DNA of 64,000 bases from Bilabrum cf. latius (Eukaryota), in NCBI GenBank assembly GCA_965178125.1, contig OZ237763.1, forward strand, positions 310,001 to 374,000, written 5' to 3'. Position numbers and translations under genes: made by a program. The notes under the pieces were generated by a model. It saw only the letters and a list, made by a program, of their open reading frames with translations. It was not told the DNA's origin and did no database searches. Shown piece after piece: positions 1 through 64,000 of this stretch; the stretch's first letter is position 1, and every line of letters starts with the position of its first letter.

Positions 1-3000
1 GCTGATCGTCACGTCGGGCTCGAATCCACCAGCACCAAAACCACGACCGGACACCACCAGTGGCAGTGGTCGCGGTCCATTCGGCGACGACGCATTGGTC
101 CATCGCCAGCTCTGGGGCGGAGCCGTGACGTCAGCCACCACGGGCCACTCCCGTGACAGCAAGGGGGGCCACGGCAGCGGCTCAGATACCGGTAGAGGGA
201 AGGCGCTGTCGCCAGGGGCGGCAAGGCTCTCGCTAGACATGCGCTCCTTCACGTGCGCATCCTAAGCACCTTCAAGGACACCTTCACTCGCTGGCTATCC
301 GTGAAGCAGGCTCTCAACAGATGTCGCTAAACGCTGGCCACAGACCCGTACTTCTATCTCTGTGCCTGTGCCCAGCCCAGGGGGCACGTTGCACTCGATC
401 ACAGCGTCAGACATGACTTCAAGATTCGAGCACAGCCTGCCTCCAATGCGCACTTCGACTGGATTTAGCATCCACGACGGCAGTACTGTGCTTGTGGCGG
501 TGCTGTTTTCGTCCCGCACTGGATCAATGGCAAAGTCAGGGTATGCGAGCAAGCGAGCACCGCTTGCATCCACTGCAGGAAGCGGCAAACTGCCAATGGC
601 ACCGGCAAACAGGTCTGATGCCCCCTGTGGCGAATACGCAAGCGAAGCGATCGAAGCCGCCGCAAGTGACCCAGCACACGCCGCCTCAGTGGGGCTAAGG
701 TCAGTTGCTAGACGCCCGCTATCAGCCGATACATCTACTGCCCTCTATATCCTATCGAATGAGGCGGGGCCAAGGGCGAATCCGCGGCCGTATAGCCTGA
801 GACGATTGCCTGGCGCAGTCGCGAAGAGTGAATCCACCGGTGATGCAGCCGGCGTGCTGCTATTGCCGCCGAACCGCAATTTTCGCACGGCGTGTACTTC
901 CGGCAGTGCGGTGGAGAAGCCCCCAGGCCCCAGCAGGTCCCGCATGCTCGGTGAATGCAAGTCATTAAGCCAGTCAGCACTTATGACCGAAGAAGTCTGC
1001 TGCAGTAGCGCCGATACGTTCAGACCCAGCCCATTCTGAACGGACAAATTATTCAGCAGCTCCGCAGTGACCACGGGCAACGCACCACTCGTACCCCAAG
1101 TTGCAACATGCAGCAGATGATTGATCCCTTGCTGCTGCTGGAACAAACTTGCGTTACTATTCGCCAGGGATGCGAACTGAAGGATGGGTCTAGGTGCCGT
1201 GAGTGCGGACGCATCCCAGCCGTCAAACATACCTCTGTCCGCAAGGCGGGGAAGTGGCACCATAACGCCAACTGAAGGACTGCCGCGACTCGAGGCAGTT
1301 TCTGGTGAGCTCTGTACCGCGTACTACGAGTCCTGAACCGGGCTACGTGTCCGCTCATTCGTTTCTCGGGCTATTTGATCGTCGAACGAGGATGAACCTC
1401 CCACGGACACGGAAACCACGAGCGCTGATCCGGCGACATTCGGAGCTTCGCATCGAACCGAGGTGTCATTGACCCACACCGTTGCACGGCACTCAACACC
1501 ACCCACGTATGCCACGGGTCCGAGGTTGCTGCCGCCAAAGTCCTGCCCGTGGACTTCGATCCAGTATCTGTCGCTAGGATCGCTTCCGTCAGCGAATCGC
1601 ATGGGTTGGGGTGGGGCAGTCCAGGAAGTCACCTGGGGCGGGTTGACCTGAAGAGCAGCTTCCCTACCAGCCACTACTACCCCGAGAGATGCCATCCCAA
1701 TGCCGAGCATTTCTTCGAAGGAAGCATTGCTCAAGCCACGTCGATCAAGCAGCTCAGACCGAGCCAAAGCTTGGACTCTCGGATGAACCACGTGCCCACC
1801 CGAAGATGCAAGGGCAAACAAGCTGGCGTTGCTGATCAAGCGAAGCGGGTGGGCAGGAGGTGGCGCATCGAGGCGCAGCTGAATGCGCCCGTCGACCACC
1901 AACCCGACAGAAGCGCCAGCGACCGCAGGCACGGTGCACTGGGTGCTGATCGCCGCGATGCCGGTCCTAGCCGCGGATGGGGCCGTGAAGAGGTGGGACA
2001 CCGCCACCAAGCCGTCGTACCAGTACCGCCTCCAGATCGAGCTAGATTCACCGCAAGAGATGGAAGAAGCCGCACCTGACGATGTGCGGAGGACCAGGTT
2101 GACGTCGGGCTCATCAACCCAAGAGGAGTTGTCCAGCACGTACGGCCCAAGCGCATCCACCTGCACCTGCACCTGCTCGCCTCCGCGCGCGGGCCAGCAG
2201 CAGGCCCTTCCGGTCGAATCCACCGGAGCAATCGCCTTGTAATCTCCAATCGTGGCATTAAGCTCTGCTTCATCCTACAGCAACCACGAGGCATGGCTAG
2301 ATCGGTCTTCCGCCCAAGCCAGCTACACGCTGTCTCCATTGGATTCCTGCATTGGTCCAGTCACCACGACATGGAACTGGCTTGTCCTCGGGACGAACGC
2401 CACGGGTGCCTACACTCGACCGCTGTGCCCGCCAGAACCGACGAGAAGCTCTGCAGACAGCTGCACCGGCAGCACCAGCCGATCACCGAGCATGGCGCTC
2501 ACAGACAGAGCGCCGGTCAGCCCCTCTACGGTCCCATTAGAGCCGGGATACCAGTCTAGCCCTGAGCTATTCACGCGGACGCGAGTCGGAAGCCTGACAC
2601 CCATTGGGGCACGTGTGCTGGTGCGTAGGGACACCCATAGTGCAGCAGCAGATGCTGCGTCGTCTGCTCCAACCGAGAGACCCAAAGCAGCCGCAGCCCA
2701 TGCTTCTGCCAACGCCGCGTTTGAGGCAGGCATGGCCGCTGATGCAGTCACTGCACGCTCTACCACGGCCATCGTGAGAGCGTCGGTCTCCAGTCCGAGA
2801 GAATCGCGCAGTAGAGCACCCGTGGATCGCGTGACGCACGAGACTGCCCCGTCACCATGGAGTGTCGAATTGGACGAGGCACACAGTGATACATCACCGA
2901 ATGGCGTAGAAACGTTCACTCTGACCTGTACTCCGCCGCTCTCGCTGTCGCCTCCCAGGAACAAACCCCTGAGCACGACTGGCTGGGCCCCCATAGGGTC

Positions 3001-6000
3001 GAGCAATGCAGTCGCTAAGTCCAGCACAGCGTCCGCAGGGACACCCCACCCGCCCGCAATCAGCGATTCGGACGCAATCACCGATGTATTTCCATGCAGA
3101 CCCGCCACCTCATTGACTGCCGCATCCTAGTAATCTCCGAGAAAGAGCGCTGCATCGCGTACCCTGCGGTGCAACACTGCCAGCGATCCCTTCGTGAAAT
3201 CAGTCGGCCAAGCAAAACCAGACGCGGGGACGGGTGGGAAGCCAGCCTGCTGCCCGTTGCCACCCAGCTCGTCCACATCGCTCCGCACGAAAGGCATGCT
3301 GGAGACCCTCGCCCAGCTGCCACTCCCGTACCCTGGCACGATACTACACCCGTGTACCCACGGCAGGAGCCGGGTCACGCTTGGGTCCCAAGTCCTGATG
3401 GCGCCGGGATCCACACCGCTTTGGAAGACCTGGAGTGCGCTGATCACTGGCTGGTGGTAAGAGGCGAACGGCGGCGACTCGATTCCCCACGCAGCTGAGG
3501 CAGCAGATTCATCGCGTTGCACACCAAGCACAGCGGACGCCTACAGAGGCGCACCACGTGCCACTTCGCCGCTCTCCAACGTAGCGTTTGTCGCGGGAAC
3601 CGCGATCGAATCTATGGGTGACGCAGATGGGTCAGAGCTGGCGGTGGCACGGCACACCGAGACAGTCACTGGTATATCCGCTCCGGATCCACTAGAGCTC
3701 TTGCACAGCAGTTCCGTGTCGCTTACAATCTACACCTCAACACAGCTAGCGCTGCCCAGCCACACCTGCCAGCCAGGTGACCCGTCAATTGTTGCGCAGC
3801 CCAGCGACAGCTCCTGCCCGGTGGCCAATTCAGAGCTCATCGGGCCGAAGTTCAACCCCCTGATGCTGATCATCTCACCGCCCATGGTGTCAAGCTTGCT
3901 ATTGCGAGTGCCATTGGCACCCATTGGAAGCGACATAGAGCTGCACGCGTCTGGGCTGAACTCGCTGGCAAGCACCGAATCGTTCGATGGCTGCAGCACA
4001 TTTGCCGACCACAGCTCGGGCGTTGCTCGTGCCACCAGGACGGGTGGCACGACTCCATCCTCCCAGTCAGAAAGGCTGCCCGAAGGCGCACCACGGCCCA
4101 GCGCATTGGCGGAGTCCGCTCCACCCATCTGCACCGACACGTCCCCGGCACCGACGCCAGGAGGCACTTGGCACCAGGCGAAGGACTCGTTCATTCTGAA
4201 GCTGGCAAGGCAGGTCTACCCTCCAAACGACACGTCAAGCGACATCGCAACCGAACCAGGGTCTCCGAAGGCTTCGCCGACCACTCCGATCCAAAGGGGG
4301 GGCAAGCTCGGTAGCGCACCAGCATGCGGCAGTCTGCCCTGCCCAGGTGCAAATGACCCTAAATCCGATGATTGGCGCATCCACTCCTCCAATGGCACCG
4401 AGCCAAAGGCATTCCCGTCGTCAACAAAGCCATCGCACCGCATTGCATCGTCAAGCACAGGGAGGAGACGCTCCACCGACCAGCCCGGGCAGGTACCCAG
4501 AATCTCAGCCTGTGTCGCAGACGCCGCCAGCCGCATTGGGGGCGGCGTGAATTGCTGCGACCCGCTCGAATTCGCGAATCTCGACCTCCTCGGCGGGGCG
4601 AGGACACCCAGCACGGCGGGCGGCTGATAGCTGATCGTGTCGTCTGAGCCAGCATCCAGAACCACCTGGTCCCCGCTGTCCAGAAGCTGCACGGACACCT
4701 ACCGATGTGCACCAAGCCCCGGCGGCACGCTACAAGTCAGATTGGCCACCATGGGCAGCGGGCCACCACCAGCTGGCAGCTCCCACGCAGGGCTCGTGCA
4801 GTCGACGGGCTGTCCACCGGGCACGGCCTGGTTGAGCGAGTCCCTGGGAGCCAGCAAGCTCACACTCAGCCTGTTATTGTTGGTGTCCACGCCGAAATTT
4901 CCGAGCGCCTGTACCTAGATCTTCAGGGTGGTGGGTGCCGCAGCACCCGTGTGCGATAGTGCGGGCCAGCAGCACTTGTGCTCGCCATCCGCGCCGCTGC
5001 TAGGTCGAGGCAGTGGCGCCTAGCTGATGACGGTGGAGAAATACTGCGACTCCCTGGTAGCGTAGGTCAACATGATCGGTCGGGAGCTCGCCCTTGACCT
5101 TCCCGCGAGCTGTACCTCCAGCGGGACTCTTTGGCTGGTGCCGGGCGGTGTCTGCGTGCAGACTATGTGGCTGCTATTCGAAGCAATCACGTTGCCGGGG
5201 CTGCACTGGATCCCGCCAATCGTTACGACCGGCTTGGGGTTAAGCAGAGGATCGCCAAAGAAGGATCCTTTCATGATCAGCCGTTCACCTCCAGCAGGAT
5301 CCAAGGGAAGCACTGGCCTCGTCGACCCAACGAAGGGAATCGACACCTCAAGTGGCGGGTTGCCGCTGCCGGCACGAGGCTCCAGGCGCATAATCTCCAC
5401 GTAGGGCGTCTCGTACTGGGCAACTACAGGCCAGCGCTCCTGCGGCGGGCGCTCTGTTGGCAAAGTTGCCTCAAACTCCATGCCATTGATGGTAATGCCG
5501 GGCATCACGCTGCTCGAGTTGCGGTGGCCGCAAACGGAAACGTTGACTGCAAGGGGTGTGCCATGTCCCGGGGGCACGAGACAAGAGACCAGCCGATCCG
5601 AGTGCCACCACACGTCGGTGCATTCGATCGCAGCTCCTCCCCCGGCTGCTCCGACCGGCGATAGGGTTACTGCTAGCGCGCGAGCCGCGCTCCAAGCCCC
5701 TCCAGCCACCTGTTCCGCTTGCTCTTCCGGGGTACCACTGCCTGGCAGAGATGCGTTGGGTTGCTGCGAAGCTAAAATGATGCTGTTGTACGCGTCTACG
5801 TACTGCATGGCCTGCTAACAGCCCACAGCTGCCGCTTCGAATGGGTCGCTGAGGTTTGCAGGCGAGAAACTCCTGCCGTCAAGCAGCAAGCGCTCGTACC
5901 CGATCGGTCGGATAGCTCTTCGTACATAGTCTTGATGATCCTGCGCAACGGACTGAAACGGATCGCTGACCGAGGGCACGGACATGCCGGGCGGCAAAGA

Positions 6001-9000
6001 CCAAGGCCCGCTGTCGGGCGCAGAGGCAAGGTCTCCCCACGCAAGCTTGGCCCTCCATGCTTCCACGGGCAGCATCTCGGCTGCCGCGGCTGCTTCGTCT
6101 GCAGGCGGTAGCAAGCTCGCAGGAAATGGCCACGTTCTCGCGCCAAAGAACTCAGGCACGGCCGGAGAGAATCCTCCTGCGGCGGCAGGGATCCCTAGCT
6201 CCAGTGACTTCCGCAGATCAAGGGTGGCGGGCGAGCCCGGTGATCCCTGCTCGGCCAGCACGACAGACATATGGTACTCGTGCCCGATCAGATCCGGTGC
6301 CTCGCACCGAAGTACAGAGTCACTGACCCACACGGTTCGTCTGCATTCGACACGGCCAACGTGCACCGTTGGCAATAGATTGGTACCGCCAAAATCCTGC
6401 CCGTGGACTTCGATCCAGTACCTGTCGCTGGAATCGCTGCCGTCTGTGAATCGCATGGGCTGGGGTGGAGCAGTCCAGGACGTCACCAGGGGCGGGTGTG
6501 CCTCGAGGAATTGACCTGACCCAGCGAGCACTGCCACCTCATCTGTGTTCCAACTTGTCGAGCTGCCAATTCCTGCCGCACTGGCATTGCGTATGCTAAG
6601 CCTGGCAGCAACAAGACCGGCGATAGGAGGCATCTCGCAAACAATCTCCGCTTCGAACGTAGGAGAGTCTCTGGTGGCAGGCTGCCAGGTGGCATTGGCA
6701 CAGCTGGACTCGTACGGCTGCACAGATCCGTTCTGGCTGGACAGCGTCAGCTAAATGTTGCCAGATGCGACGTCCGAAGGCAGTGCATACGACCCCAGCG
6801 ACACCACGCGCACCACGGCTTCCAAGGGGGCACTGACTCGCGGACCGGTCGGGTCAGCCGGCCAGCAGCAGGAGGGACCGGGAGCATCGGACACTCCGGC
6901 GGCTACAGTGCCACCAGGGAGTGAGACGATCTCGAGACCTGCTGACGGCCTGTCGCCCGTCTAGGGGGGCAATGCCGTGCCAGGGTACCCCAGCAGCGGC
7001 AACGAGGAAGCAGAAGCCTCCGTGGCAACCAGCCCGAACTGCGTGAACCAGGGCGCGTACGCGATGGGAACCGAAGCAGATAAACCGTCCAGGTCACCAG
7101 CAGAGAGGCCCAGCGCAGCCTCCACGACGACAGGGTAGCTGGATGTGCTGGCCGGTGCGGCAGAGCCGCTGGCCGTGCTCAGCGACTCGCTCATGCACTG
7201 CACGAACGAGTCATTCAGCCGCTGCAGCGTGCCAGCACGGCAGGGAAACTGAATGCTATGGGATCCACGCCCTGCCATAGGGGCGCTGCTCTCTGACACC
7301 AAAACGATCTCGGGGAGGCCAAGAGGCTGCCCCGCCTCGGCATCTGACGGGCCGAAGTACCTTCCCTCAATGAGGAGCTTCTCACCGCCCGCAGGGTCTA
7401 AAAGGAAGGCAGCCGTCTGCAGCGCCGCATTGGCGCCCTCCGACCCCTGGGTGCGAGCAAGAAGCGCACTCCAAGCGGCCTGGGCTCCTTCATCTCCAGG
7501 TGAAGGCAGCAAGCGGCGAGGTGCCTCAAACTGGGCCAGCCCGTCCGCAGAAATGCCCAGGCTGCCCGCCATAGGGAGGACACGGATGGCCGCGCATGTA
7601 GGGGGGCGGAACCAAAACGTGGCTGGCCACGGGGAGGTCGCAGTGGGGGACGTCGCGTTGTGAGCGCGCCCCTGCTCCGTTGAGGCACTGGCATTCGTTG
7701 CCTGCCCGCACACCTCCACCTCGATATCGTAATTTCCACCGATTCCGGGCGGGCTGTTGCAGCTGATCTGATCATCGCTCGTCCACGTAACTCCAGTGCA
7801 CTCAGCAGTGAACTAGCGCCCCCCACCCATATCCCCATGAACCCTCACGCGGACGCCCCCGCACCCCCACACAGTTGGTGGACCCCCGGAAGCGAACGGA
7901 ATGCTCGGATCAATCGAGCCGAAGTTGAGCCCGTGGATGCTGATGATATCACCCAGCGTGTCAAAGCTGGGCCCCACCAGGCCTGGCTAGTCGGAGTCCT
8001 GCACAGACCATACCTCTGGCGCCGCGCACGCAAATCCCAGCGCGCCTGCGGGTGCCGAGCCCGAGTACTCGTCGGTGTCGGCAAAGTCTTCCCGCCCCCA
8101 AGGCTCGTCCGCCGTAGAAACTCGGCCGAGGATCGAAGCGCCGTAGCCTGCTGGTGCGCCCCACGAGCCCTGGTTCTTCACAATGACGGACACCGCGAGG
8201 TCCTTGCCCACCAGGCTGGGTGCCTCGCAGCGCACGAACGTGTCGTTCACCCACACGGTCAAGCGGCACGGCACCTCGCCCACGAACGCAGTCGGCTGCA
8301 AATTGACGCCACCAAAGTCCTGCCCGTGCACCTCGATCCAGTACCTGTCCGCTGCATCAGACGCATCGGCGAAGCGCAGCGGCTGCTCTGGAGCCCTCCA
8401 TGCCGTGACGAGTGGTGGTCTGTAGGAAACGTGCCCCTGGACAGTAACGGCCCGGGACACTGCGGGCTGGAGCAATCCGGCGCCGAGGTCTCCCGGAGCG
8501 ATCACGACAGTGAGGTTCTTTCCCGCGAACGCGGGGGTCACGCAGGTCAGGTTGGCTCCAACAGCGGCATGAGGCGCTTCAAATCCAGCGCTCTCAGCAA
8601 ACTAGACCGATCGGCAGAACTGCCCGCCGGCAGCTTCGACGTCGGCCTGGCCTCGCTAGATGAGTGCCTCCGGCTCACTAATACCGTGTGGCAGCAGCAC
8701 GACCTGCAGACCTTGGGAGGCCTCAGCCGTCGCGTTGATCCTCGCGGTGCCAAAGGCCCTAAGCTCAAACCGAAGCTGCTGGCCGCCCGCTGCATCCAGA
8801 AGCGCCCTCTGGTTCCAGGCATCGCTGCCTTTGACGTGCTCCATACCAGCAGCGCCACGCAGCCAGGCAGCGTACCCCGCCAGCCCCGCAGAGATGATGG
8901 CCCCGTTGTCGTTGCCGTTCGCGTCCTCCGCGTGCGGTGCACCGAGCATGACGAGTGTGCCGACCCTGGCATCCTCCCCCAGCACGGCCACCGCGGGGCC

Positions 9001-10623
9001 CAGCCCGGCATCCACGCCCAGCCGGTCGGCCCCCGCCAGTCCGCTGCTCCTTGCGTCCAGCACGGCGAGGCCCACCTCTGACCTGAGCGGGTCGTCGCTT
9101 CGCGAGTCCAGATTGCCTACTGGCGCCGTTCCACCGAAAGATCCTGCACCACCGTAGCCCTCAGCATCAGTCACTGGATTTGCAAGCACAAACACGCCGC
9201 CGAAGCCGCCATCGTGACCAGACGCCCCGATCAACAGGTCACCAAAGCCGTCGTTGTCCAGGTCAAACCCGCTAGCAAGACTCGATCCTAGCTTGAGACC
9301 GTCCGGGCTGGGTGACAGCCCCTCGATTGCGCTATGACGCTGTAGGAGTGCCCCGATGGGCGCGCTGGCAGGGTCCAGTCTGCGCCATCGAATGGCGGGC
9401 GGCATGGGCGGGGACTGGATCGGGAAGGCCTGGCCACCCGCGGAGTGTGTCTGCTGTGCCACTGACTGCACAATCGACGTGTCGATGACGAAAAGCCACA
9501 CCGCACCCTCTCCCATGTTCCACCCAGGCGACGACACGGCCACGCTGGGTGTGTCGTCCACGGCCAGCACAGACAGCTGCTGCGCCTTCATCGACGTGGG
9601 CCCGCCTTCTGGAGCGCGGTGCTGCTAACCAACGCTGGAAATGACGGCAACCGCTGCGCCAAAGTAGTTCCCTGGTTCATCGGCCACGGCATTCCTAGTA
9701 AGACCTTGCAGAGTTGCGTTGCTGGCGCACATGATCCTACCCGTCGCAAAGCTTCTGTCGAACGCCAGCACGGCCACTGCTCCCACGCTGGTGGCAGCGC
9801 GGTTCCCACCGATCTGCCTTCGCTCCGCCTCTATCTGCGCCGCGTGCTGGGTCGAGCTTACCGGCTGCAGCCCGTCCATCGGCGCGTTCGGTGCCCCTAC
9901 CAGCACCATGGCTGCACCGTTCGGCAGTAGGGAGCCCAGCGGCAGCACGTCAACAGAGGCGCCCAGCCTGGACTGCCGGGGCACCGACATCATGCCCAGC
10001 GTGCCGTTCTCAGGAATCATCCTGACTGCCTGCACGCTCGTGCCGTAGAAATTGAGAGGGTCGTATCCGACGCAGAGCACGCCCCCGGCATTCGTCCCAT
10101 TCGAGGCTGAGTCGGTGTACAGCGGCAAGCCGGCCATCACGAGCGCGTACCCAGGACTCGAACCTGGACCCTCCTGCAGTAAAGCTAGGGACGCACCAAA
10201 GAACGCGTCGGTCTGCAAAATGGAGGAGCCCAGCTGCGCCACGCCGATGCTGGCTGTCGCTCCCCTCGCCCTCACCCTCGGCCCCTGCGTGCCTGGCCCC
10301 GAGCTCAGCTCCAGCCATCTCACCACACCCTCACCGACGTCGCCAGCTCCGGGTATGCCTGCCAGCATGTCCAAGAAGCCGTCACTGTTCTGGTCCCCGG
10401 CAGCAGCGAGCCCTGAGCCGAGCATGAGCGGCTTGCCCCAGCTGACAGACGGGAAATTCGCGTCTCCGTTAGAGAGCACGCTGGACCGGTACACCAGGTC
10501 CAGGAGGAGAGGAGCGCTGGCATTCGGTGACAAATGGGTGAGACCTTCAGGTGTCTAGAGGGCGCCAGCACCTGGAGCTAGAGCGCACACAATTGCTAGG
10601 AGGCAAGCCAGCAGCAGGTGCAT
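1..10623 (-). CDS. Giant secreted/surface protein (>3,540 aa, 3' end beyond window): signal peptide, FG-GAP (integrin-alpha-like beta-propeller) repeats, then multiple IPT/TIG-like domains; requires TAG read as sense
   Basis: ORF-track fragments 295, 745, 1324, 2410, 3127, 3730, 4216, 4699, 5020, 5815, 6961, 7987, 8656, 9625 and 10555 all share one minus frame. I read the gaps and found only TAG interruptions (23), with no TAA or TGA. ATG at 10623 begins MHLLLACLLAIVCALAPGAGA (signal-peptide-like). The frame stays open upstream to 11436, so ATGs at 10734, 10779 or 11388 are alternative starts. Motifs: GDQNSDGFLDMLAGIPG and DLDNDGFGDLLIGASG (FG-GAP); IEVHGQDFGG...VGGVEC...WVNDTSVRCEAP and CxVPPGxG (IPT/TIG). 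Confidence 0.85.
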
Positions 10624-12112
10624 CGGGCCAGAAGCTTCGGCTACTGCGGCTGACGGGAAGGCTGCTCGTCTTGCCTTTGCCCTTGCTTTGCGCTTCCTCC
10701 GCGATTTCACAGCAGAGGAGGCGATCCTACCCATGCTCCACGCATTGCAAACGACCCTGCTTTCAGGTTCTTGCAGCATCCGGTTGACAGAGCATGCCGG
10801 TGCAGGTGCCCCCAATGAGTCAGTCCTCTACCTATGAGAGCCGTCCACAGACATTTTCTATCCAGCGGATGAGCTTAACGCACCATTTGTGCTTCGGGTG
10901 CCGCCGTGCTCGCCTAATGGCAGACCAGAAGGTCCTGCATTGCTGCGTCCCGCTCGTGCAAGACCTATCTCCGACTGGCCAAGAGGAATTTTGGCAGCTC
11001 TTCTCCTACCCAGGTTATGGAACTTATTGCTGTGGCTGCCACTCAATTGCTATCGCTCGCCGTTTGCTGATCCAGGCGTTGGTTGCGTGGTGCTCCAGCA
11101 TTCACGTTGGCTGCGGCGAAATGCATGGACTCGTTGTTCCCGTTCCCCGGTACCAACACCGCAGCAGCCTGACCGACCAACACTTGTGCGCGCAATCGAG
11201 CTGCGAGTCTGAGACTCTGTTCCGGGGAGGGGGGTTGTGCTGCCATCCCTGACGCGGCTGCATTCTGGCTGGGACCATGTGCCATAGCTTTCATGCGCCA
11301 CTTCGGTATTTAAACCTCCCCCTTTCCATTCAAATTCACGACACGGTAATGGAATCATCCAAAACTGGCTGCAAATACTGTTCTGCATCCTTATAAGGAA
11401 GCTGTAGGCCGAAGGGGTCCTGGCTTGCAGCTAGTGTCACGCCAATCCCCACGACTCCCAACAGCGACAAGATCTGAACCAAAAGCTTTGGTATGATTGG
11501 AATATTACTATTGTTCTAATCTTCGCGGGCTGGTCCCAGCAGGGATAGCTTGACTGAGCAGGAAACGTCAATATCGGCGTAGTCGGTTGCGCGTACTTTT
11601 TTGGTGGTTTTATGCTTCATCATCACTAATTGCAAAAGCTTAAAGCCGGTTTTAGATCGCCTCCCCTGATCAACAAAAAATTGCTCCCAGCAAGGGTTGT
11701 CCTATGGGTGCTTTATCTGCTTACCCGAGTCAAGAGCAGAAAGAGGCGTCACTGGAGCCAGTACCGCGAGGCGATGCCATCGGACAGCTCGACCGGAGGC
11801 ACTGCCGCACTGCACTCACGAGTGTCCAAGCCATGCAGACCGACAGGCGCGGGCGGGTACCAACGAGCGACGGCGTGTCAAAAACCCCATCAGATGGGAA
11901 CGGCATGGGTGGACTCAGCCAAGGTGGACGAGCTCAGGGCGATGGGATGTGTTACAGGATGGGAGGCTGGAGCCCCGGGAGTCTGCCGCAGGGCGAAGTC
12001 AGGGAACACACAGGCGCCGGTCAATCTCCATCTACCTCGACTAGCTCGTCAGACAGTGGCGGCAGTCATGCATCACCAGAGTACGCAGTCAGAGTTCTGG
12101 GGCTTTGTGGGG

Positions 12113-13491: not shown

Positions 13492-14031
13492 CCTTCGCTG
13501 TGGTGGTGCGGAGCTGTGTAGGATGGTGGTCACTGAATGTTGACATGCGTCGATGGTCGAGTGTTCTCAAAATACGCAAAGCGTTGTACAATTTGTTGTG
13601 GTGCCACAACACAGTTAGTCGTTTCCATCGAAATAAGCACAACTGCACGACACGGGCCCGGCTCCACTGACACGGATCCGGAAACATAGCGCTGTGGCCA
13701 TTGCGGTTTGGGCACTGCCATCGGCAGCGAGTTGTCTACGAAGTACGATCTGCCAGCAGTGCTAGTACTCTCGCTGGAATCGACCGCGGGTAGATCTGCC
13801 TCCAGATCCATCAATTACGGAACAGGCCATCACTGTTTGCGCGGCGCCAATTCAAACGGCAACTGCACACGTTCAAGGCCCTTTCGTGAGAAATAACTCC
13901 AACTGTCGCCGACCAAGTCTACAATAATCATTTGCGCCGGATATTTTCGGACGACTGCGTATCTTAACCGCACCAGCATTCATTTTCAGGTGTGTTTTGC
14001 AGTCACCCTACTTTCCAGCAGATTTCAAGCC

Positions 14032-51700: not shown

Positions 51701-54700
51701 GCTACTGTCTCCAGGAGCGCCCACACACACATCGGGATCCCCGTCGCTGTTGAAGTCGCCCATCCCAGACACAGATGCACCAAACCAGTCGCCCGCCGAC
51801 AGCATGCCGCTGAAGCCAGACTCGCCGGTGGCAATGCGCTTTGTGATGTCATACACGGACCCGTTCGTCTGCAGAAACAACAGGAATGCCGAGCCCCGCC
51901 CGTCCTGCGCACCGGGCGCACCCACAAGCAGGTCGATGAAGTCCACGTTGTTGCCGAGTCCACGCACTGCGCTGACCGCCAGGCCAAAGCCATCACTGGG
52001 CTCCACTGATGGATGGATGCTCGCGCCCGTGTGCTCCACGAGGCTCAACACCTGCGCGCCCGCACGAGAGCCGTTCGCCATCAGCGCCACAAAGGCCGAC
52101 CCATTCGACCCCAGGACCAGGTCGATGTACCCGTTGCCATCGAGGTCCCCGAGCACGCCGACGCTGCGACCGATGCCGCCGAACGGTCCGGTTCGGTTGG
52201 CCAGGTGTACCCGACTCTGCTCCAGGATGCCGGTAGGCACGAAGGCGCCGGGGTATGGACTCGCAGAGACAGTGGACGATGGGCTGGTGCTTGGCGTGGG
52301 CGAGGTGCTTGGGGGGCTGCTGGTGCTTGGTGTGGGCGAGTTGCTAGGGCTAAGACTTGGGCTCGGACTCGTGCTTGGACTCGGACTTGTGCTCGCTGTC
52401 GGCGATGGCGACACGCTTGGTGCCAGCACTGTCTCCGTGCGGAAGATATACACCGCGCCGCTGCCGCTCGAGTTCAAGGCTCCTCCATGCCCGGGTGCAC
52501 CGACGAATGCATCAAAGTCACCGTCCCAGTCAAAGTCCACCACGCCCACACCCGAGCCGAATCGCGCCCCCGCCTCCAGCTCATCGCCCAGATCACCCGA
52601 GTCGTACCGTCTGCTCGTGGTGCTGCTGTTGCCCACGATCGTCACTTGCGTCACGTTCCATGTGCCATTCAGACTCACGGCAAACACCCTGCCCACGTCG
52701 TCATCCTACCCCCTGCCCCAACCAGGAGACCCCACGTACACCTCCACGAACCTGTCCCCGGTGTGGTCCAGCGAGACCTCCACAGAGGCGCCGAAGGCCT
52801 CTCCGCCGGACGGACCGAAGCGCGCAGGGGGCCGCAGCACCTACACAGTCTCCAACGCGTGCCCGCTGCCATTCACACGAACCATAAACACCGCACCAAG
52901 CCCTCCTGGGTCCTGACCTGATGCACCGATCGCCACCACGTCCTCGCTGCCAGGTACCCCAGACACGCCAGACCCGAACCGCGCTCCCACATGCGACATG
53001 TAAGCAGTGCCAACCAGCCCCTGCTGCTGGCTGATCTTCCTAGAAGATACCACCCAGCCAGTGCTGTCCAGCCCAAGCAGCCATACAGCGCCCGCGCCCG
53101 ATCCCACCCCGCTGCTACTGTCTCCAGGAGCGCCCACACACACATCGGGATCCCCGTCGCTGTTGAAGTCGCCCATCCCAGACACAGATGCACCAAACCA
53201 GTCGCCCGCCGACAGCATGCCGCTGAAGCCAGACTCGCCGGTGGCAATGCGCTTTGTGATGTCATACACGGACCCGTTCGTCTGCAGAAACAACAGGAAT
53301 GCCGAGCCCCGCCCGTCCTGCGCACCGGGCGCACCCACAAGCAGGTCGATGAAGTCCACGTTGTTGCCGAGTCCACGCACTGCGCTGACCGCCAGGCCAA
53401 AGCCATCACTGGGCTCCACTGATGGATGGATGCTCGCGCCCGTGTGCTCCACGAGGCTCAACACCTGCGCGCCCGCATGAGAGCCGTTCGCCATCAGCGC
53501 CACAAAGGCCGACCCATTCGACCCCAGGGCCAGGTCGATGTACCCGTTGCCATCGAGGTCCCCGAGCACGCCGACGCTGCGACCGATGCCGCCGAACGGT
53601 CCAGTCCGGTTAGCCAGGGGTACCCGGCTCTGCTCCAGGATGCCGGTAGGCACGAAGGCGCCGGGGTATGGACTCGCAGAGACAGTGGACGATGGGCTGG
53701 TGCTTGGCGTGGGCGATGCGCTTGGGCTACTGCTGGTGCTTGGTGTGGGCGAGGTGCTTGGACTCGGGCTCGGGCTCGGAGGCACCCCACCCATGAATGC
53801 AATGAACAGCGCGCCTCTGTTGGAGCCTCCAGTGTCGTCCTAGCTTGCGGCAAAGACCAGATCAGTGCGGCCGTCCCCGTCAAGATCACCCAAGGGAGTG
53901 CCGGCTGTGAAGAGCGTACTGCTTACCGCAATACCGTTCAAAGCCCCGGTGCTTGGTTCGATCTTTGTGATTGATTTGACTGCATCTGCCTGGGAGCCTG
54001 AGTTGAGATAGAATACGTACGCCGTATTCTCAAGGCGAGCTCCGACGAACAGGTCCTCGTTCCCGTCTCCGTCCATATCACCAGCGTTCCGGACCGGAAA
54101 CCCCAGCTCCGATCCCAGTCCGATTGCACTGATTGGCAGCCCCTCCTCGCCGTTCTCAATTGTCTCGGGGGGCCCAATAGCACCAGATGCGTTGAGCCGC
54201 ACAATGTGGAGTCGGTCAGCAGACAGCTCAGCAATGACTAAATCCACCGGATTGCCAGCAGACCGCGGGCTGATGGCAGCAATTGAGAATCCGATGGAGC
54301 TGACACCGGACGGCATCCCTTCTCCGCTCGCCGGCGAAATTCGAAAGTGGTTATGAATCGTGTCGTTGCCGTTCATTAACAGCACAAAGACTGCACCAGT
54401 GTCGGGTGCGCCTGCATCAGTGCTCGGCGCCCCGGCGGCAATGTCATTCAAGCCATCCCCATCGAGATCTCCCAAGCTACCCGAGATCGCACGCCCGAAT
54501 AAATCACCGGAGCCTATGGTGGAAACAGGCATGCCACCCACACCGTTTCCGATCTCCTGCTAATGTGCCACGGTACCATTTGGAAAAATTCGAAGCACCA
54601 ATACTGAACCAGCGTTGGTAGCGCCTGCATCGCTCTAGAACATACCTACCGCAATTCTCGGCAAGTGGCCGTCATCACCGGAGGGCTGGTCCAGCCGCAC

Positions 54701-56455
54701 AGGGTCGGCTCCAAATCTCTAGTCAGGTACTGTGGGGCTGAAGACCAGCCCACCTTCTAGCGCGCTTATCTTCTGGTAGGTCTTGACCGTGCCGTTCCGA
54801 TGCATGAACATGATCATGAACGACCCGCTGTTTGACTGATCGTCATCATCGCCGAAAATATGCACTGCAATGTCCTGCACCCCATCCCCGTCCACATCGC
54901 CGATGGAGGATAGCGATTCACCCATAGTATCATCGTCCACAAGCACGCCATCGGGCAGTCCGCCCACTCCGCTGGCAATCTTCTACACCCTAACAGGAAC
55001 CCCAGCAGCAGCTGGCGCAGCCGAAGGTGAAGGACTCGGGAGAACGCCGCCCATGAGCGTTACAAAAATGGCCCCGCGGTTCTCCCCTCCCATATCGTGG
55101 AAAGATTGCGTCAGGATGAGGTCGGTGCGGCCATCGCCATTGATGTCACCGATCCCAGTGCCTGCTCCTAAATAGTCTCCGCTCGTGGCCTTTCCCATCA
55201 GTTGCGACCACACGAAGCGGCGAAGATCACGAACTGGGTCTACAGAGGGATCATCGTTCATGTACAGTATGTAGGCAGCCCCATTTGAGCCCTGATAAAA
55301 CGGTGAGCCGACTAGCAAGTCATCAATGCCATCGCCATCCATGTCTCCTGGGTTGGATACAGTAGAACCAAAATCACCGCTAAATGACCCAGATGGCACA
55401 CCACCTGACACCGGAAGGCCGCCAGAGTTACTCTTGATAACTGAAATGGTGCCCCCGACGCTTCCGTTAGCAGCTAAAGGCACCAATAGGATAGTGTTGG
55501 ACTTCTTTACGCCCACCACTAGATCAACGGGGTGGCTCAGAGGATCGCGAGGAGGTAGTGCAGTGAGGCTGCTGCCGACTTGAGTAATGGCCGGGACCAC
55601 GGTGTCAAGACCCATTCCCGGGGCCTGGGATAAGACCACGTGCTCGCGAACCGTGTCATTCCCGTGCATTAGTAGTACAAACACGCCACCATTGAGCGTT
55701 CCACCCAGGTTTGCCTGAGGGACCCCGACTGCCATGTCGTTCAGTCCATCGCCGTTGATATCCTTCACCTGGGTGGTGATACCAGCGCCAAACTAATAGT
55801 TTGCCCCAAGGGTACCACTGGGCAGTCCACCCGCACCATTGTGGATCTCAGTCTGGAGCAGCACTGTTGCGTTCGGTGACATCCGGAGTACATACAAGCG
55901 GCCTGCGTTGCCGGCATCCAGGTCGTTGCCCGGCTCCCCCACGACCATCCGAGGGAGATGGCCTTCTTCTCCATTCGGCTGATCCAAGCGAGATGGCTCT
56001 GCCCCTAGCTGATCGTTGTTTCCTCCAGCGCAGCTCAAGCCGTTCCCACACCGAATCTCGCGGTATTCCCTGACAGTGCCGTTCCGGTGAAGGAAAAACA
56101 CCAACACCGCGCCTGCGTTGGTATCTGGCAAGTCGGAGAAGTGGTACCCGACCGCTACTTCATGCACACCATCGCCGTCGAGATCCCCCATGTCGCCCAC
56201 GTACGTGCCAAACTATCCGTAGTTAGACAAGCTGTTGGACGGGAGCCCGCCCACCCCGTCTGCTATCCTCGTGACGCCTGCGATGTTCCCGACTGCTGCA
56301 GGGCTGGGCGAGCAACTGGGGGTCACGGATGGCGTCGGGCTTGGAGATTCAGCGACTAGCAGTCTGTCCATGTGGGCGCCCACATCTGGCTCAACAGCGG
56401 CAGCGTGCCACAACAGTGCGCTGCATCCCATTACCAACAGCACAAGACTTGGCAT
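39752..56455 (-). CDS. Polycystin-1 (PKD1/REJ)-like giant receptor, ~5,567 aa, apparently single exon: signal peptide, many FG-GAP repeats with Ser/Pro/Thr linkers, Ig/Calx-beta-like modules, REJ-like region, EGF-like domain, GPS motif, ~9 TM helices
   Basis: About twenty ORF fragments from 56213 to 39752 share one frame. I counted about 46 in-frame TAGs and no TAA or TGA in the gaps read. ATG at 56455 begins MPSLVLLVMGCSALLWHAAA. Motifs: GDLDGDG FG-GAP loops; LDGTSSADLD...IQWDC and NAPPSSGHLEV...AVGWTD...LPLSFRFGY (REJ-like); CSGHGSC...CTCSSGWHGRAC (EGF); CATTHLSDF (GPS); HMWGSIF...TRPQRL and YGILF...SWVIASLVSFAIDIVLQEPL (polycystin-1 TM-region motifs). Stop codon is TGA at 39752-39754. Confidence 0.85.
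50904..53757. repeat. Near-perfect 1,413-bp (471-codon) intragenic tandem duplication of an FG-GAP propeller module
   Basis: Sequence starting at 50904 recurs at 52317, and briefly at 53730. ORF-track pairs are offset by exactly 1413 (51428/52841, 51460/52873, 51262/52675). Only a few substitutions separate the copies. Confidence 0.95.
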
Positions 56456-59221
56456 GGCAATGGTGTCGTTGCGACCTTTGGTAGAGCTGCTGCAAGTTGC
56501 CAATAGGCTATTCATCCTAATCTCTGGTGGACCGTGTAACCCTAGGTGTTGCGCGGATCCTATGTCTACTGCGGTGGATACGACGGTCAATCGGGCATGG
56601 CTCGAATACAGGTCGGGTACTGCAACGCACAACTTTGCCGCGCCAAGCTTAGATCCATACAAATCAATAATGCACAGAAGGACGACGACAGCGGATATAC
56701 GGCGGGAAATGGGGTAACGTACAGCCTTTTGCTAAGGTCGCGGCGATGGTTGACCACACACTGCATGCAAAATGATAACCTCCGGTCATCAATTGAGCTC
56801 ATAGAAGGTGGAAAATAATAACACCAAATGAATGATCACCACGGTCTTTATTGTGAATCAACAACAACCTTGAGTTGCATTCGACTATGTGCCGAATCCC
56901 TCAAAATGTGGGTTATCGGCCTAATTTCGATAAGTGGGGGCTAAAACCGCACGATCGCATGGATTATCTACACAATAGCATATTTGTCTCACTAAAACGA
57001 TTAATGAGCGCCGCGTGATCCTGTATCAGGACAGCTATAGGCTCCAAGAGTTGACTGACAACAGGTCGATATCGTTTGTGAAATTTGTTGAAAGTGTCGA
57101 CACGCCCTCCTGTACCGGGTGCGCAAGTACAAATATCTGTAGTGAAACTATCTTTTAGGGCAAACCCCCAACTGTTCCTCTGTACCTGCACCAGGGAATT
57201 GCGAGGGAAACCCTGGTGAAGCTAGAAGCTGTGATCTTCATCTTCTCAATTGTGTCCATTCGACTAATCACGATTGTTGATGAATTTGTGTAGCAATGCT
57301 CATTCCCTAGCCAAATTATACGTGTCAGCAGCGATCTCAAGTGTGTGCGCTGCGCTTGCTCTCCCAGTGGTAAGCGCAAAGCTTCTTATGCTCCCTACCC
57401 AGCATGGGACACTGGCAGCCGCACTGCAACATTTTGCGACCATGAGCACCGCACCAAACGTCGCACGTGCTGGCTTGCCGCGAGGCAAAAACGTTTCCTC
57501 TAACAAGCTACCCACAAACTCACGCGTGCACTGACCTGCTCAGGCTGTGCTCCTTCTATTACACGCGCGCGGCTTGCTGCCAGATGTTGGCTTCGAAACC
57601 TCCCAGCTGCTGCCGAACGTGCGTTGGCGGTACCTGGCTGTTCCTATCGCTTGGCCACAGAATGTGAAGCACCCGGGGTGAATTACAGCTACGGATCGGC
57701 CGACCTGCCATGATTCACACGATGCTGAGGCTCAGTAGCCACTACCGCATCGTGGGCTGGCACAGAGTCCTTGCGCCAAGCCATGCCTGGAGTGCGGAAC
57801 AGCCTGATGTCTCGGCTGCTCACGTCCATTCACTTGAGCCGGCTGTCCAAGTTGACGCTGACGTAGTTTGTACACCGCTCAATACCAGCGTTGCGCCACG
57901 GGCTGCAGGCTAGTCTGCACTCGCTGCTGTCGGTGTCACCCGCGCTGCCTTCAGCCGCATGGCCACCCCCATGGGGTGGGCCCGGCGACAGCCGCACCGG
58001 AATTTCGCCCCTGCAGTCCCGCCACCGGCAGCCATTCCTTTTCTAATTCATTGTCATCATTGATACCAGGCGGAATTCTAGTAGTGCTCTTGGGTTGCCT
58101 CTCAGGCTTGTGCTTAGTCAAGCAGCCATCCTAGCACAGTATCCTCGCATAGACGACGAGCCCACCAGCAAAGAAGCCACCCGTGTGAGAAAAGCAAGGT
58201 CGCTCTATCAATCATACGCAGGCGGGCGATTTGTCCCTTGCACTAGAACAATTGCTCCAGCGTTGCCCCGTTCGCACAGGGACCTAACCAGCTGGAGCGG
58301 CGGATTCTCTCAAGAGATAGTCTCGACTGGAAACGGTAAGACCTGGGGTCAGGCATGGCTGATTCCGAGTCATGTGGGTCCTGGTTTGTGTTCCCGAACC
58401 CTAGCGCAGCAGTCGATGCGTTGCGGCTGGCGCCGCGTACATCATGCCACTGGCAGCGGCAACAGAAAATCCTCCTGCCCCCGGCCCCGCGGACTCACTG
58501 GGCTTCACCCCGAACGACTGGTTTTTCCCCGGTCCATCTGAATGTGGTATTCCATTTATACTACAAATGTACGCACAACTTTCCCAGTTTTTGCAAGAGG
58601 TCCTTTGTAGCGTGTTGAACTTTCCCAGTACACGTGCAGCACGTCGACTGGCCTCGTCGCTGCATGGCTTCCTGTTCCCGTTCCCCGCCCTAAGGTCATT
58701 GTGCGCTGTTCCCTGCATCGCCACTATGACCCTTTCCTCCCAGCTTGCACGTGCCGGTCCTGGCCAACCTGCCATGCGTTCCATCCATCCACCTGCCTGT
58801 TGGCCTCTTCTGCGCGCCGCAACCCGCTGCCACTCGCGTCTCCCTTGTGCCTGGCACCTGGAGCCGCCTCCCTCCCGTTGTGTTCTCCCTATTGACACCG
58901 AACTGTCGTCGCCTGTGCTGGTGGCCCCTCTTGTTCCTCTCTGCCTCGTCGTCGCCCATCTCGCTTCAACCAAGTACATATTGCATGAACGGAGCACCTG
59001 ACCACGGTCGCACATCAGCATAGAACAGTTATAGAATACGTATTGTATGTGCTTTTATTGTTGAATGGGTGCTTTGTAGGCGAGATCAGGGGTGTGTGCC
59101 GTCCACGTGCGGGGTCAGAGCAATGCAGTGCAGTCAGGTTTTGTTGTGTGTGGTTTCTTATTTACGGGTTGGTCGGTGGGGTCGTCATCCACCAACTGTT
59201 CACAGCAAATTCACCGAAGCT

Positions 59222-62200
59222 ATGAACCTGTTCGCTTCTATCGGTGCCGCAACGACCATTCTTGCGTCATCATGCTATGCGTTGGACATTGCGCGATTCG
59301 ACTTTGAGCTTCCAACATCGGAGGCTGGCTGGACTGCAAGCTTCAACTACTATGACTTAAATCGCGCCCCACTGTCGTTTCAACCGGCACTGGCTATTGC
59401 ATCTACCCAAATGGGTTACTATAGCTCATTTTCAGTCGTTGGTGAAGGCATTGAGCAGGCATTTATCCCGGCAACTTCGCTGGCAGTCGTGGCGCAGCCC
59501 AATATGACATTCGAAGGGGCTGACGGCCCGTCTAGTGGCAGTTCTATCGGCGAAAAGAATATGGTTGCAAGCCCAAATGGGCGATATGTAGCCGTGTGGT
59601 CGAAAGTGCCTGCGTCCTTGTCAGGTTTGGATGCGCAGCACTTCGGCTTGTTCGACTCCCAAGGGAGAAGTGCTGCTCGATTCGGTAACAACGCCATTGG
59701 CGAGGGCAGCTGGCCAGCAGGATACTCCAACAGCGTCTCCGGTAAATATGGGGTTCCAACGTGGCTAAGTAATAACGTCGTGTGCCATTCACTGCAGTTC
59801 AACCTGCCTGGGGGCCAGACTGGCTACCGGGTGGGATGCTGGGACCAGCGTCTCCCCGCAGGCAGCCAGCTCGTCATCGTGGGCAACTCCACGGACGCGG
59901 AGGGACTCGTGGCCATGGGCACTGACAATCGCATGTGCATGACGGCGAGGCCGCACGCCTCCGCGCACGGCAGGGAGTACTACTGCATTGACATGAGCAC
60001 TCCCTCTGCAGACCCGGTCGCCTTCCTCGTCGCTGATTTGTTCCCCGGGCCCAGCTCCAGCGTGTCGTCGACGTTTTACCAATACGCTCTCCCCGCCGGT
60101 GAGGACCACGTTTGCATGGATTTCGAGCGGCGATCCGGCAACCGGAACTACTTCACCGAGATGGGTTGCTACCAGTGGTCCACTGGGCGCTTCATCATCA
60201 GCGACCTGTTCGTTGGCAGCAACAAGAGGGAATACCGCGGGTTCGTCAGCGGCATGTTCATCTACGGCTGCATCCCTGGACAACAAAAGCTGTGCGCGAT
60301 GAACCTCACCACCGGTAACACCACGCAGATGGTGGTGCAGCACCCCGCCAACGTCGGCACATCGGACAGGCTCAACAACGAGGCCTTCATGCTGGGCGAC
60401 GTAGTCCTGGCGCCCTACGACAAGCGGCCGGGGAACTCCATCCGGATGGCAGTGTGGGTACCCTCCGCTGGTAGCGACTCGTACGATCTCGCGAACGGCA
60501 CCGGCCGGGAGCGAGAGAACAGCTTCGTCACGGCATCCGCGCGACTCGGCGGGCAGCGCATCCTCTTCGGGCTGGGGAACTTCTTCAGCGGCACCGAACC
60601 CAACCGAGCGGTGGTGGTGGACTGCAGTGACCCATAGGACGTCAGGCTGCTGCCTATCGCTGGCTCGTGGGAGTCTGCCCTGGACCAGCCGGGCCAAAGC
60701 ATTGAGTGGGAAGACGCGGTTGCCCTGCCGGGGGTGGGCCCGGGAGGCGAGACCGGCGCTGTTCTGGTGAGCAGTGTGTCCATGTTCTTCTGGAACGGCG
60801 ATGTGGCTGAGGCCGGCATCACCCTGGCCCACGGAGAGATCAACGTCGTGCTACCAGTGGGTCCCTTCGGCGGAACTCCTGAAGGTATACTCTACGGGAT
60901 AAGGAACAGCTACAATACCTTCGAGCTGACCACCGTGGAACTGCCCGACCCAGTTGCGTTGCAGGCTCGCACGCCGCAGACTGTGGATCCAAGCGGGGGC
61001 ACGCTGAGCACTAGCAGCAACTGGGGCAGAGCAACCCCGCCGCTGGTCAGCAAACCGGATGGCCAGCTGTGCTACACCAAGATTTCCGTGGCAAATGGTG
61101 GCAGAGACAATATGTGCTTCGATCCAGTGTCCCTGGCTGCAAACACCTCCGGTGATATGCCAGCCTCTCCGTACGAGCGTGCATCGACCCAGGAGTTTGA
61201 CACCGATTTGGTCGAGTCCACGTTTTTCGTGGTGTCGAGCTTGCCAGGAGCTTCCGTGATGCTGGTAGACGTAGATGGCGACGATCGCTTGTACTTCTTT
61301 GATGGCTCTCACCGGCCGTACATGCTGGGTCCGATTGACCCAGACCGCCGCGACGAGATCGAAGAGGATGACAATCCACCCGCTGTTGTAAACGGAGGCC
61401 GGTACCTGTGCTTCAAGCACGCGGGGCGACTTCCTGAAGACGAGGAAATGGTCATGTACGACATGCACACGCACAACTGGACCGTGTCTGACATCACGCC
61501 GGGCGATGACACGTACACCTTCGGCATGTTTACCGCATTCGACCGCTACTGCATCTTCCAAGCAGAGCACCCCACCTCAGGCGGGGAGTGGTTCTACTGG
61601 GACTCCATGGACAGAGAGGCAGGACCGCAGCTGCTTGAGTCCTTCAGCGGCAGCGACGGGGTGTATCTAAACGTCCTCGACAAGGGCAAGATTGCGACCA
61701 CAGAGACCGCCTCGACCTGGTCCATCGTGTACAACTCCTACGATGATGACAAGGAGTGGGTCGTGGTGCTGGAGAGGCAGGCAGACGGCAGTCTGGCACT
61801 GACGCACTCTGCAGCCATCAGCGACGCCGAGTTCTCGATGGCTGTGCCTTTGCCTGGCAGCAACCAGACTGTGCTCACGTACACGGGCGGCAACCCACAA
61901 TAGCTGCGGGTGCTCAACTCGACCATGGGTGGCGGAGAGCTGGTCGACATCTCTGCACCGAGCGGAATGGAGGTCGACGAAGTCTCCGGCTACAATTCGA
62001 CCCACCTTGCCGCCTTGATGACCAACTCCACCAACAGCGATGCAACTGAGATGGTCTGCCTTATCAACGTCGCCACAGGGGCCTGCGACCTGCAGCTGGG
62101 ACCAGTGCTGGGGAACAGCGCCACTGGACTCACTGCCGTGCACAACGGATACATCTGCCTGCAGACCTCCCCTGATTCCTCTCACATCTACTCCCGGGAC

Positions 62201-63286
62201 CTGGCCTGCTGGCCCGGGCGCGGCAACCGCATCATCACGATGGACGTGGTACCAGAGGGCCCCGTGGAGGACTGGCAGGAGATCGAGGGAATCATGGGGC
62301 GATTCGACGAGCAGGAGGGAGTGATTGTTTCCATGAAGCACCCGATCTACGACGAGGGCCTCTACTTTGTGCAGCTGGTCGCCCCCTCACCGAGCCCTTC
62401 TCCCACCCCATCGAGCAGCCCCACGCCATCCGCGACTCCAAGCCCATCACCAACGCCGAGCGTCAGCAGCAGCCCCAGCACCTCGCCCACGCCGAGTGTC
62501 AGCAGCAGCCCCAGCACCTCGCCCACGCCGAGTGTCAGCAGCAGCCCCAGCACCTCGCCCGTGCCCAGCCCATCAACGAGCGAGCTTCCGGCAGCAGCCG
62601 TCAGCACGGTACCGCGCGGTAGACGCAAGGGCAGTACCCCTGCAAGTTCCTCCTCTACGTGCGCCCAAGGAGCCTCCGTGGAGACCTCGCAGCTGCTTCT
62701 GCAGACTACCGTGTCGGTGGCTGACGCCACGGCAGCCGAGGTGGGCTGCGACAACGCAGCGACGGTCGTGGCCGCCGCTGCTGCCGCTGCCAGCATCCGA
62801 GTCGACGAGGTGACCTACTGGCTGCAGAGTACCGAGTCCGGGGGCACCGAGCTGGTGCTGCAGATACCCGTGGAGACCAGGGAACAAGGGGAGCTGATCC
62901 TGCAGGGGATCGAGACGGTGCTGGGTGACCCGGCGCAGACTGCGGCGCTGCTGGATTCAGCTCCCGCTGGGGCCTCTGTGTCTGCGTGGGACCGCAGCGA
63001 CGGGGACACGACGGCCATTCTGGACTCGCCGTACCTGGAGGACGGGGAGGACGACGATGGGCTTGATCTATGGATCATCGTGGTGATCGCTGTGGTGGGG
63101 GCTCTGGTTGTAGGCGGGGGACTTATGGCATGGTGCTGCTGCTGCGGAGGAGGAGCGTCCAGGGCCAAGGTGCATAAAGATGAGAATGCAAAGAACAAGG
63201 GCGATGCCAGTGGGAAGAGGCAGGCAGGGGCCCCGGCTGGGGGAGCGGCTTGGACTGGCGCTGGTGCTGGGGCGCAGGCCGTGTGA
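59222..63286 (+). CDS. Type I membrane protein (~1,354 aa): signal peptide, Cys-containing beta-propeller repeats resembling ELWxxDGT repeats, Ser/Pro/Thr stalk, single TM helix, Cys4 motif, short tail
   Basis: ORFs 59069, 60734 and 61910 are in one frame joined by TAG at 60635 and 61901. ATG at 59222 begins MNLFASIGAATTILASSCYA. Repeats include HGREYYCID...LVADLFPGPSSS, VSDITPGDD and FQAEHPTSGGEWFYWD. The TM segment WIIVVIAVVGALVVGGGLMAW is followed by CCCC. Stop codon is TGA. Confidence 0.8.
62452..62559 (+). repeat. 36-bp coding tandem repeat x3 (PTPSVSSSPSTS) in the mucin-like stalk
   Basis: acgccgagYgtcagcagcagccccagcacctcgccc occurs three times in tandem. Confidence 0.85.
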
Positions 63287-63991: not shown

Positions 63992-64000
63992 GATGTGTGG

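Follow-up and report, generated by a model that had tools for sequence, protein, structure and literature searches.

Nuclear stop-codon reassignments outside the ciliates are few, and cases in which UAG changes its meaning without UAA are rarer still. UAG alone has been reassigned to glutamine (Gln) in the fornicate Iotanema spirale, in Protocruzia tuzeti and in two phyllopharyngean ciliate lineages (PMC11687900). UAG is read as leucine in exLh, a rhizarian, and in some ciliates, and as serine in Scotinosphaera (PMC11687900, PMC5304391). Joint reassignment of UAG and UAA to Gln (UAR; the table 6 type) is found in many ciliates, some ulvophytes, hexamitid diplomonads, Streblomastix and Amoeboaphelidium (PMC11687900). 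The UAG-only changes contradict the old view that UAG and UAA necessarily change together (PMC5304391, PMC11687900). Here, we describe a 64,000-nucleotide stretch of an assembly of Bilabrum cf. latius (GCA_965178125.1, contig OZ237763.1, positions 310,001 to 374,000 of the forward strand), the whole of which is called the window below. It is, in all probability, nuclear DNA of a GC-rich eukaryote that reads UAG as a sense codon, most likely Gln, with UGA as main stop and UAA also a stop, which is the assignment of NCBI table 15.

Reading frames opened by TAG, and their ends

The GC content of the window ranges from 55 to 68% per 4-kb stretch and is about 60% overall. Its longest open reading frame (ORF) measures 791 amino acids (aa) under the standard code, 1143 aa when TGA is read as sense and 5677 aa when TAG is read as sense; with TAA as sense the maximum stays at 791 aa, and none of the top ORFs gets longer. 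Reading TAG as sense yields ORFs of 5677, 3812 (running off the window start), 2854, 1943, 1518 and 1368 codons, distributed over both strands. Within these six large ORFs (17,171 codons) there are 106 in-frame TAG, no TAA and no TGA, whereas 142, 50 and 330, respectively, are expected from off-frame frequencies in the same DNA; the probability of 5677 codons free of both TAA and TGA is about e^-127. In-frame TAG therefore occurs near its unconstrained rate and meets with almost no restriction, whereas neither TAA nor TGA is admitted at all. Among codons of the set TAG, CAG and CAA, TAG has a share of 16% in the window and 24% in the relatives described below.

An earlier note on this DNA had reported genes on both strands interrupted by TAG alone, and the absence of TAA and TGA inside the six large ORFs confirms this. 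Its hand counts for seven genes (23, 3, 10, 14, 8, 46 and 2, or 106 in sum) are near a recount from the first ATG of the same seven ORFs (26, 3, 10, 10, 8, 46 and 3), which likewise sums to 106; counted from stop to stop, the figures are 27, 3, 10, 11, 8, 47 and 3, or 109 (Table 1 gives the positions of the genes).

Protein families continue in frame across the TAGs. According to Pfam, five TIG stretches and FG-GAP share one frame on both sides of TAGs in the giant ORF at the window start, as do 11 FG-GAP stretches and REJ in the 5677-codon ORF. In the HEATR6-like gene, DUF4042 and HEAT lie in a single frame on either side of TAGs, and five collinear segments, together spanning six TAGs, align with protein P0001 of Cafeteria roenbergensis. 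TPR_10 and TPR_12 are placed in a single frame across the TAGs of the TPR gene at 34641-38747, whose repeat unit is 42 residues. Judged on the sequence, the genes of the window are real and read through TAG. Of the two conserved genes that the earlier note had offered as examples of such continuity, HEATR6 stands by virtue of its DUF4042 and HEAT domains and the Cafeteria alignment; the other, an assignment of the 2854-codon ORF to NPHP4, was not confirmed, as no Pfam family matched this ORF at E values up to 0.01, Pfam being the one comparison made of it.

TGA terminates all seven window genes whose 3' end is complete, and likewise all five conserved enzymes on related contigs for which this end is complete. 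Among the relatives' long ORFs, 14 terminate in TGA and seven in TAA, and a further 12 run off the contig. A true TAA terminator was found in none of the window's seven complete genes. UGA remains a stop codon, as indicated by its absence in frame against 330 expected and by the gene ends (7/7 and 5/5); UAA also remains a stop codon, given none in frame against 50 expected and the seven ORFs of relatives that end in it.

Relatives were sought with a motif conserved in the TPR-gene family; the scan returned 27 metagenome loci from four differently numbered data sets. At 25 of these loci (GC 0.52-0.59), TAG as sense gives the longest ORF of the four readings, extending one, for example, from 247 to 1989 aa. 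Near-identical contigs from different data sets provide 382 pairings of TAG with TAG, none of them changed. The same TAG usage in 25 related metagenome contigs therefore indicates that it is no assembly artefact. Several enzymes of these relatives have TAGs inside their Pfam matches and end in TGA, namely a WSC-GH3 glycosidase (nine TAGs), a cytochrome P450 (three), a PLD-like protein (three) and an AAT-family protein (five).

In the glycosidase, encoded at locus L006, residues 116-980 of 982 align across the TAGs with a full-length homologue at 54% identity, Pfam domains cover the TAGs, and homology extends to residue 980, directly ahead of the TGA. A public protein library holds two 100%-identical standard-code pieces of it, P0142 (residues 190-408) and P0137 (540-906). 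With TAGs at residues 409, 533 and 907, P0142 stops just ahead of one TAG and P0137 lies between two, which demonstrates the fragmentation by standard-code annotation that the earlier note had predicted. The residue after 409 is His; more distant homologues have Pro there, and four of the closest have His.

The remaining two loci (L024 and L025; GC 0.72-0.73) are open under the standard code. L025 (1-20069, GC 0.72) is free of in-frame TAG in the genes that it carries, namely a MutS-type gene (domains I, II, III and V), an MIP channel and a TPR-family member of 1766 codons, and its contig-name prefix, which denotes the metagenome data set, is the same as that of many TAG-using contigs. It may be a standard-code relative, which we regard as a lead and not a finding.

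Read data were used as a further check on the assembly. Public runs X1 and X2, assembled separately, gave contigs that show no differences from window positions 43235-50880, where they cover 33 TAG codons; these runs are possibly the source of the assembly, so that the comparison excludes polishing errors and is not independent support. A second study supplied run X5, whose contigs agree without differences at five further TAG codons. Of the variants among read contigs, 18 were checked and none falls in a TAG codon; 258 further variants lie outside this check. Runs X5 and X6 had been guessed to be RNA and are DNA-like in appearance. The earlier note had named reads with CAG at these positions as the mark of an assembly error; the separately assembled contigs of X1, X2 and X5 carry identical TAGs.

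The residue read at UAG

The identity of the residue was assessed on ORFs of at least 390 codons from the window and the 25 TAG-using loci, in which TAG was translated as X and copies of at least 95% identity were collapsed. The resulting 52 ORFs (53,670 codons, 463 TAG) were aligned all against all (amino acids are given below by their one- or three-letter codes). In a likelihood test on 158 TAG sites, with substitution profiles drawn from the same alignments, Q (-451.3) was followed by E (-470.0) and R (-470.1). Q won 492 of 500 bootstraps over the 158 sites, 445 of 500 over 55 sites in pairs of 45-95% identity and 489 of 500 at 30-45% identity. An earlier version of the test on all ORFs of at least 150 codons gave Q in 956 of 1000 (166 sites), and one restricted to the best partner per site (57 sites) gave Q in 863 of 1000, with Q at 12 sites and E and R at nine each. 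As a control, sites truly encoding Q, E, K or R were subsampled, and the test named the right residue in 200 of 200 trials for each.

Because the flat substitution profile of Q could attract noise, a model-free measure of enrichment was added. Opposite TAG, Gln is enriched 3.28-fold over the 158 sites (95% interval 2.27-4.38), ahead of R (1.70), S (1.44), K (1.43) and E (1.33), and 5.89-fold (3.25-8.66) over the 55 sites in pairs of 45-95% identity. The same measure, applied for each of Q, E, K, R, S, T, A, N, D and G to the half of its sites that is least conserved, never put Q on top, the highest value for Q being 2.37. Individual columns point in the same direction. Q is present at GH3 site 533 in seven of the eight closest covering homologues, at WSC-domain site 139 in six of eight, at HEATR6 site 552 in Cafeteria, and at TPR-gene site 818 in the three closest paralogues, while TPR-gene site 1077 coincides with the Q of the repeat motif. 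Two aligned TAGs of the relative's P450, compared with solved structures, face D, a gap or other varying residues. It is close to certain that UAG is a sense codon, and highly likely, as far as alignments can tell, that it means Gln. The core claim of the earlier note, namely a sense UAG that most likely encodes Gln beside UAA and UGA as stops, is thereby supported by the codon counts, gene ends, enrichment and likelihood.

Several observations weigh against Gln. It is about half as frequent opposite TAG as opposite CAG and CAA (0.11 vs 0.24, and 0.21 vs 0.40), from which it follows that TAG occupies less constrained positions. At GH3 site 409, in a conserved motif, 119 of the 139 homologue residues listed are Pro, and if TAG is Gln, then the GH3 of L006 has replaced a near-invariant Pro. 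Site 907 of the same protein shows R 32, K 28 and Q 19, and TPR-gene site 792 is Lys in four paralogues. A column test confined to GH3 (seven TAG sites, 150 representatives) scored A at 0.1 and Q at -0.3, while naming ordinary codons correctly in 55 of 57 cases. The appeal of the earlier note to conserved columns is accordingly answered in part: the columns at GH3 533, WSC 139, HEATR6 552 and TPR 818 read Q, and the GH3-only test does not decide. The 158 sites are largely drawn from a single expanded gene family, which limits their independence. Paralogues internal to the window, which are too divergent for the purpose, align a mixture of residues with 30 TAG sites (among them G 21, Q 18 and R 17), and the columns of the 42-residue TPR repeat are too thin, since the 77 distinct repeats have just 17 TAG, each in a column that varies. 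Finally, no tRNA gene was found in the window or the 27 metagenome loci, and a decoding tRNA is not seen there.

A rival explanation keeps UAG as a sense codon with a different residue (Glu, Lys or Arg), or with ambiguous decoding through near-cognate tRNAs. The next commonest residues opposite TAG are indeed E, R and K, as in the best-partner counts above, and both the Lys of the four paralogues and the indecision of the GH3-only test would suit this explanation. We nevertheless consider it improbable: Q leads E by 13.7-18.7 log-likelihood units and takes 89-98% of bootstraps, the control shows just these three residues, E, R and K, in place of Q where Q itself is least conserved, and a TAG that meant R or K would give a 2.4-2.8-fold enrichment of K or R where 1.4-1.7 is observed.

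Other explanations concern whether the code has changed in this way at all. Context-dependent meaning of all three stop codons has been reported in a few protists, and UAG could have a double meaning here, sense within genes and stop at some gene ends. Just a few dozen gene ends were examined, with 3' ends taken from ORF ends and not from transcripts, which leaves a small chance for this possibility; against it, TAG ends none of the seven complete genes of the window and none of the five complete enzymes of relatives, and the homology of the GH3 protein continues until just short of its TGA. Smaller still is the chance that the code is standard and TAG in DNA is edited U-to-C to CAG in mRNA. 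Such editing would likewise place Gln at TAG positions; a general U-to-C activity, however, should also rescue TAA (to CAA) and TGA (to CGA), neither of which occurs in the 17,171 codons, and we know of no U-to-C editing of this kind in nuclear mRNAs. Decay into pseudogenes, or a systematic C-to-T error at CAG in sequencing or assembly, can point to one real frame slip, in the TPR array near 34641. The ORFs nevertheless hold only one of the three stop codons in frame and no frameshift in 17,171 codons, identical TAGs appear in contigs of three runs from two studies, and the same usage recurs in 25 metagenome contigs drawn from four data sets with separate numbering, which makes artefact or decay a negligible prospect. 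UAG as a sense codon for Gln is left as the best explanation of the window.

Gene content and placement of the organism

Table 1. Genes and ORFs of the window, and the glycosidase gene of a metagenome relative.
Feature	Position	Strand	Length	In-frame TAG	3' end	Remarks
Giant ORF with IPT/TIG and FG-GAP domains	1..11436	-	3812 codons	27 (26 after first ATG)		Runs off window start; 0 TAA/TGA
Ubiquitin/NEDD8-conjugating E2, exon-like ORF	12967..13491	+		0	TGA	UQ_con, E 1.2e-36
Ankyrin-repeat gene, several ORF pieces	13897..18034	+	629 codons (last piece)	3 (last piece)	TGA	Last piece 16145-18034
HEATR6-like gene (DUF4042, HEAT)	18247..24078	-	1943 codons	10	TGA
ORF, no Pfam family	25092..33656	+	2854 codons	11 (10 after first ATG)	TGA
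Multi-copy-family gene, conserved N-terminal domain and TPR_10/TPR_12 array	33863..38747	-		8	TGA (33863)	Weak CLU match in N-terminal domain
Giant ORF with many FG-GAP and REJ	39752..56785	-	5677 codons	47 (46 after first ATG)	TGA
ORF, no Pfam family	58730..63286	+	1518 codons	3	TGA
WSC-GH3 gene of relative	L006 168-3113	-	982 residues	9	TGA

The TPR gene belongs to a family with further members on the 25 metagenome contigs. Its array (window 33802-35737, minus strand) comprises at least 14 tandem copies of a 126-base repeat. One spacing is 124 and not 126 bases, producing a 2-base frame slip near 34641 and with it the only apparent TAA terminator; beyond the slip, the array runs on in another frame to the TGA at 33863. 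The TAA at 34641 was considered as a gene terminator and rejected on this ground. Two origins are conceivable for the slip: misassembly of the repeat, or a genuine frameshift carried by one copy within a multi-copy family. Across 36303-38314, read contigs sum to a depth 2 to 11 times that of the adjoining single-copy stretch (in run X1, up to 1027 vs 93), and many of them match at 88-95% identity, which places the TPR gene's N-terminal domain in a many-copy family of this genome.

Two genes bear on the presence of introns. An intron is likely in the E2 gene because the N-terminal part of the family lies outside the ORF. In the ankyrin gene, three successive pieces in the same frame (15437-18034, plus strand) are split by single stops at 15842-15844 and 16142-16144, and the end of the first piece is TAG-dense and non-coding in appearance. 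These breaks are probably introns of a length that keeps the frame. With an exon-like E2 ORF and an ankyrin gene in pieces, the genome therefore probably contains introns.

The 5677-codon ORF has a C-terminal part that appears hydrophobic, a judgement made by eye on the translation only, and includes a 1413-base tandem duplication at 50891-53780, the 300-nt reference copies of which are 98% identical. The duplication is flanked by Ser/Pro/Thr-rich linkers, and its TAG codons were doubled along with the duplicated stretch.

Comparisons of conserved proteins suggest a lineage without close sequenced relatives, as far as sequence matches go. The HEATR6-like protein has one named match, Cafeteria roenbergensis at 34% identity, a weak match and the only one to pass among 8000 scored candidates. 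In a relative, malate dehydrogenase reaches at most 62% identity outside its own group, its best named matches being Balamuthia (55%) and Naegleria (52%), and comparison of the E2 enzyme within a protein atlas indicated no lineage. The heterotrophic stramenopile that the earlier note had seen in the gene content is not established by a single weak match to Cafeteria and a malate dehydrogenase that gives no placement. Its suggestion that the reassignment could be undescribed is in keeping with a search of open-access papers and preprints, which turned up nothing on a code of this kind from stramenopiles or any other GC-rich flagellate; novelty is not established by that open-access literature alone. 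We put at about even the chance that this is an independent, so far unreported reassignment of UAG to Gln in a lineage of free-living, flagellated, GC-rich eukaryotes that belongs to neither ciliates nor fornicates and may be a heterotrophic stramenopile that branches deeply, in which TGA is the main stop and uncultured relatives in several metagenomes share the code. If this is true, then the GC-richer, standard-code L025, with the same gene family, would bracket when the change arose.

Decoding, significance and comparison with known codes

By analogy with other UAG-only codes, decoding would depend on a dedicated tRNA-Gln whose CUA anticodon pairs with UAG and leaves UAA unpaired, and on an eRF1 with poor recognition of UAG (PMC5304391). 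In Iotanema, a tRNA-Gln(CUA) and an altered eRF1 have been proposed, the eRF1 substitution described being T32G, at a residue in contact with the third base of the stop codon (PMC5304391). An eRF1 gene was found neither in the window nor in the loci, and Rfam gave no match, and no rRNA, in the window or in the 20 of the 27 loci that were scanned. TAG codons may have arisen after reassignment from CAG by C-to-T change at tolerant sites; with such an origin, TAG would be expected at less conserved Gln positions than CAG and CAA.

The window looks like a further GC-rich, TGA-terminating lineage with the known table 15 code. Such a lineage would be a valuable natural experiment, being GC-rich and TGA-ending and having environmental relatives with the same code, and could show how eRF1 drops UAG yet keeps UAA, and whether UAG is captured more readily under GC pressure. 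In practical terms, the standard code, when used to annotate this genome or its relatives' contigs, cuts most genes up, pieces of which are already in a public protein library, and gene counts, completeness scores and protein databases for the lineage will be wrong until table 15 is applied. The case is thus of interest both for the evolution of the genetic code and for the annotation of protist genomes.

Among known codes, NCBI table 15 (UAG = Gln; UAA and UGA stop) has the same codon table as that deduced here, and is silent on lineage and mechanism. Ciliate genomes are generally AT-rich, and the window differs from the UAG-only ciliates in having very long ORFs, of up to 5677 codons, in 60%-GC DNA. 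Protocruzia tuzeti and the two phyllopharyngean lineages likewise have UAG uncoupled from UAA, with the same residue (PMC11687900). This source bears out the statement of the earlier note that the table 15 code is known from Iotanema and some ciliates. The UAR = Gln codes give UAG the same meaning, but here in-frame TAA is absent from 17,171 codons against 50 expected. In exLh (Leu) and Scotinosphaera (Ser), UAG is sense and UAA a stop, as in the window (PMC11687900, PMC5304391). The residues differ: opposite TAG, S is enriched only 1.44-fold here, and L is outside the seven most enriched residues listed. The cytochrome P450 on a relative's contig belongs to an oxygen-using enzyme family, whereas Iotanema spirale is an anaerobic endobiont (I. 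spirale is described in PMC5304391). Like the lineage described here, I. spirale is a non-ciliate eukaryote in which UAG but not UAA has come to mean Gln, with the difference that UAA is its primary terminator (PMC5304391), while seven of seven complete genes in the window, at about 60% GC, end in TGA.

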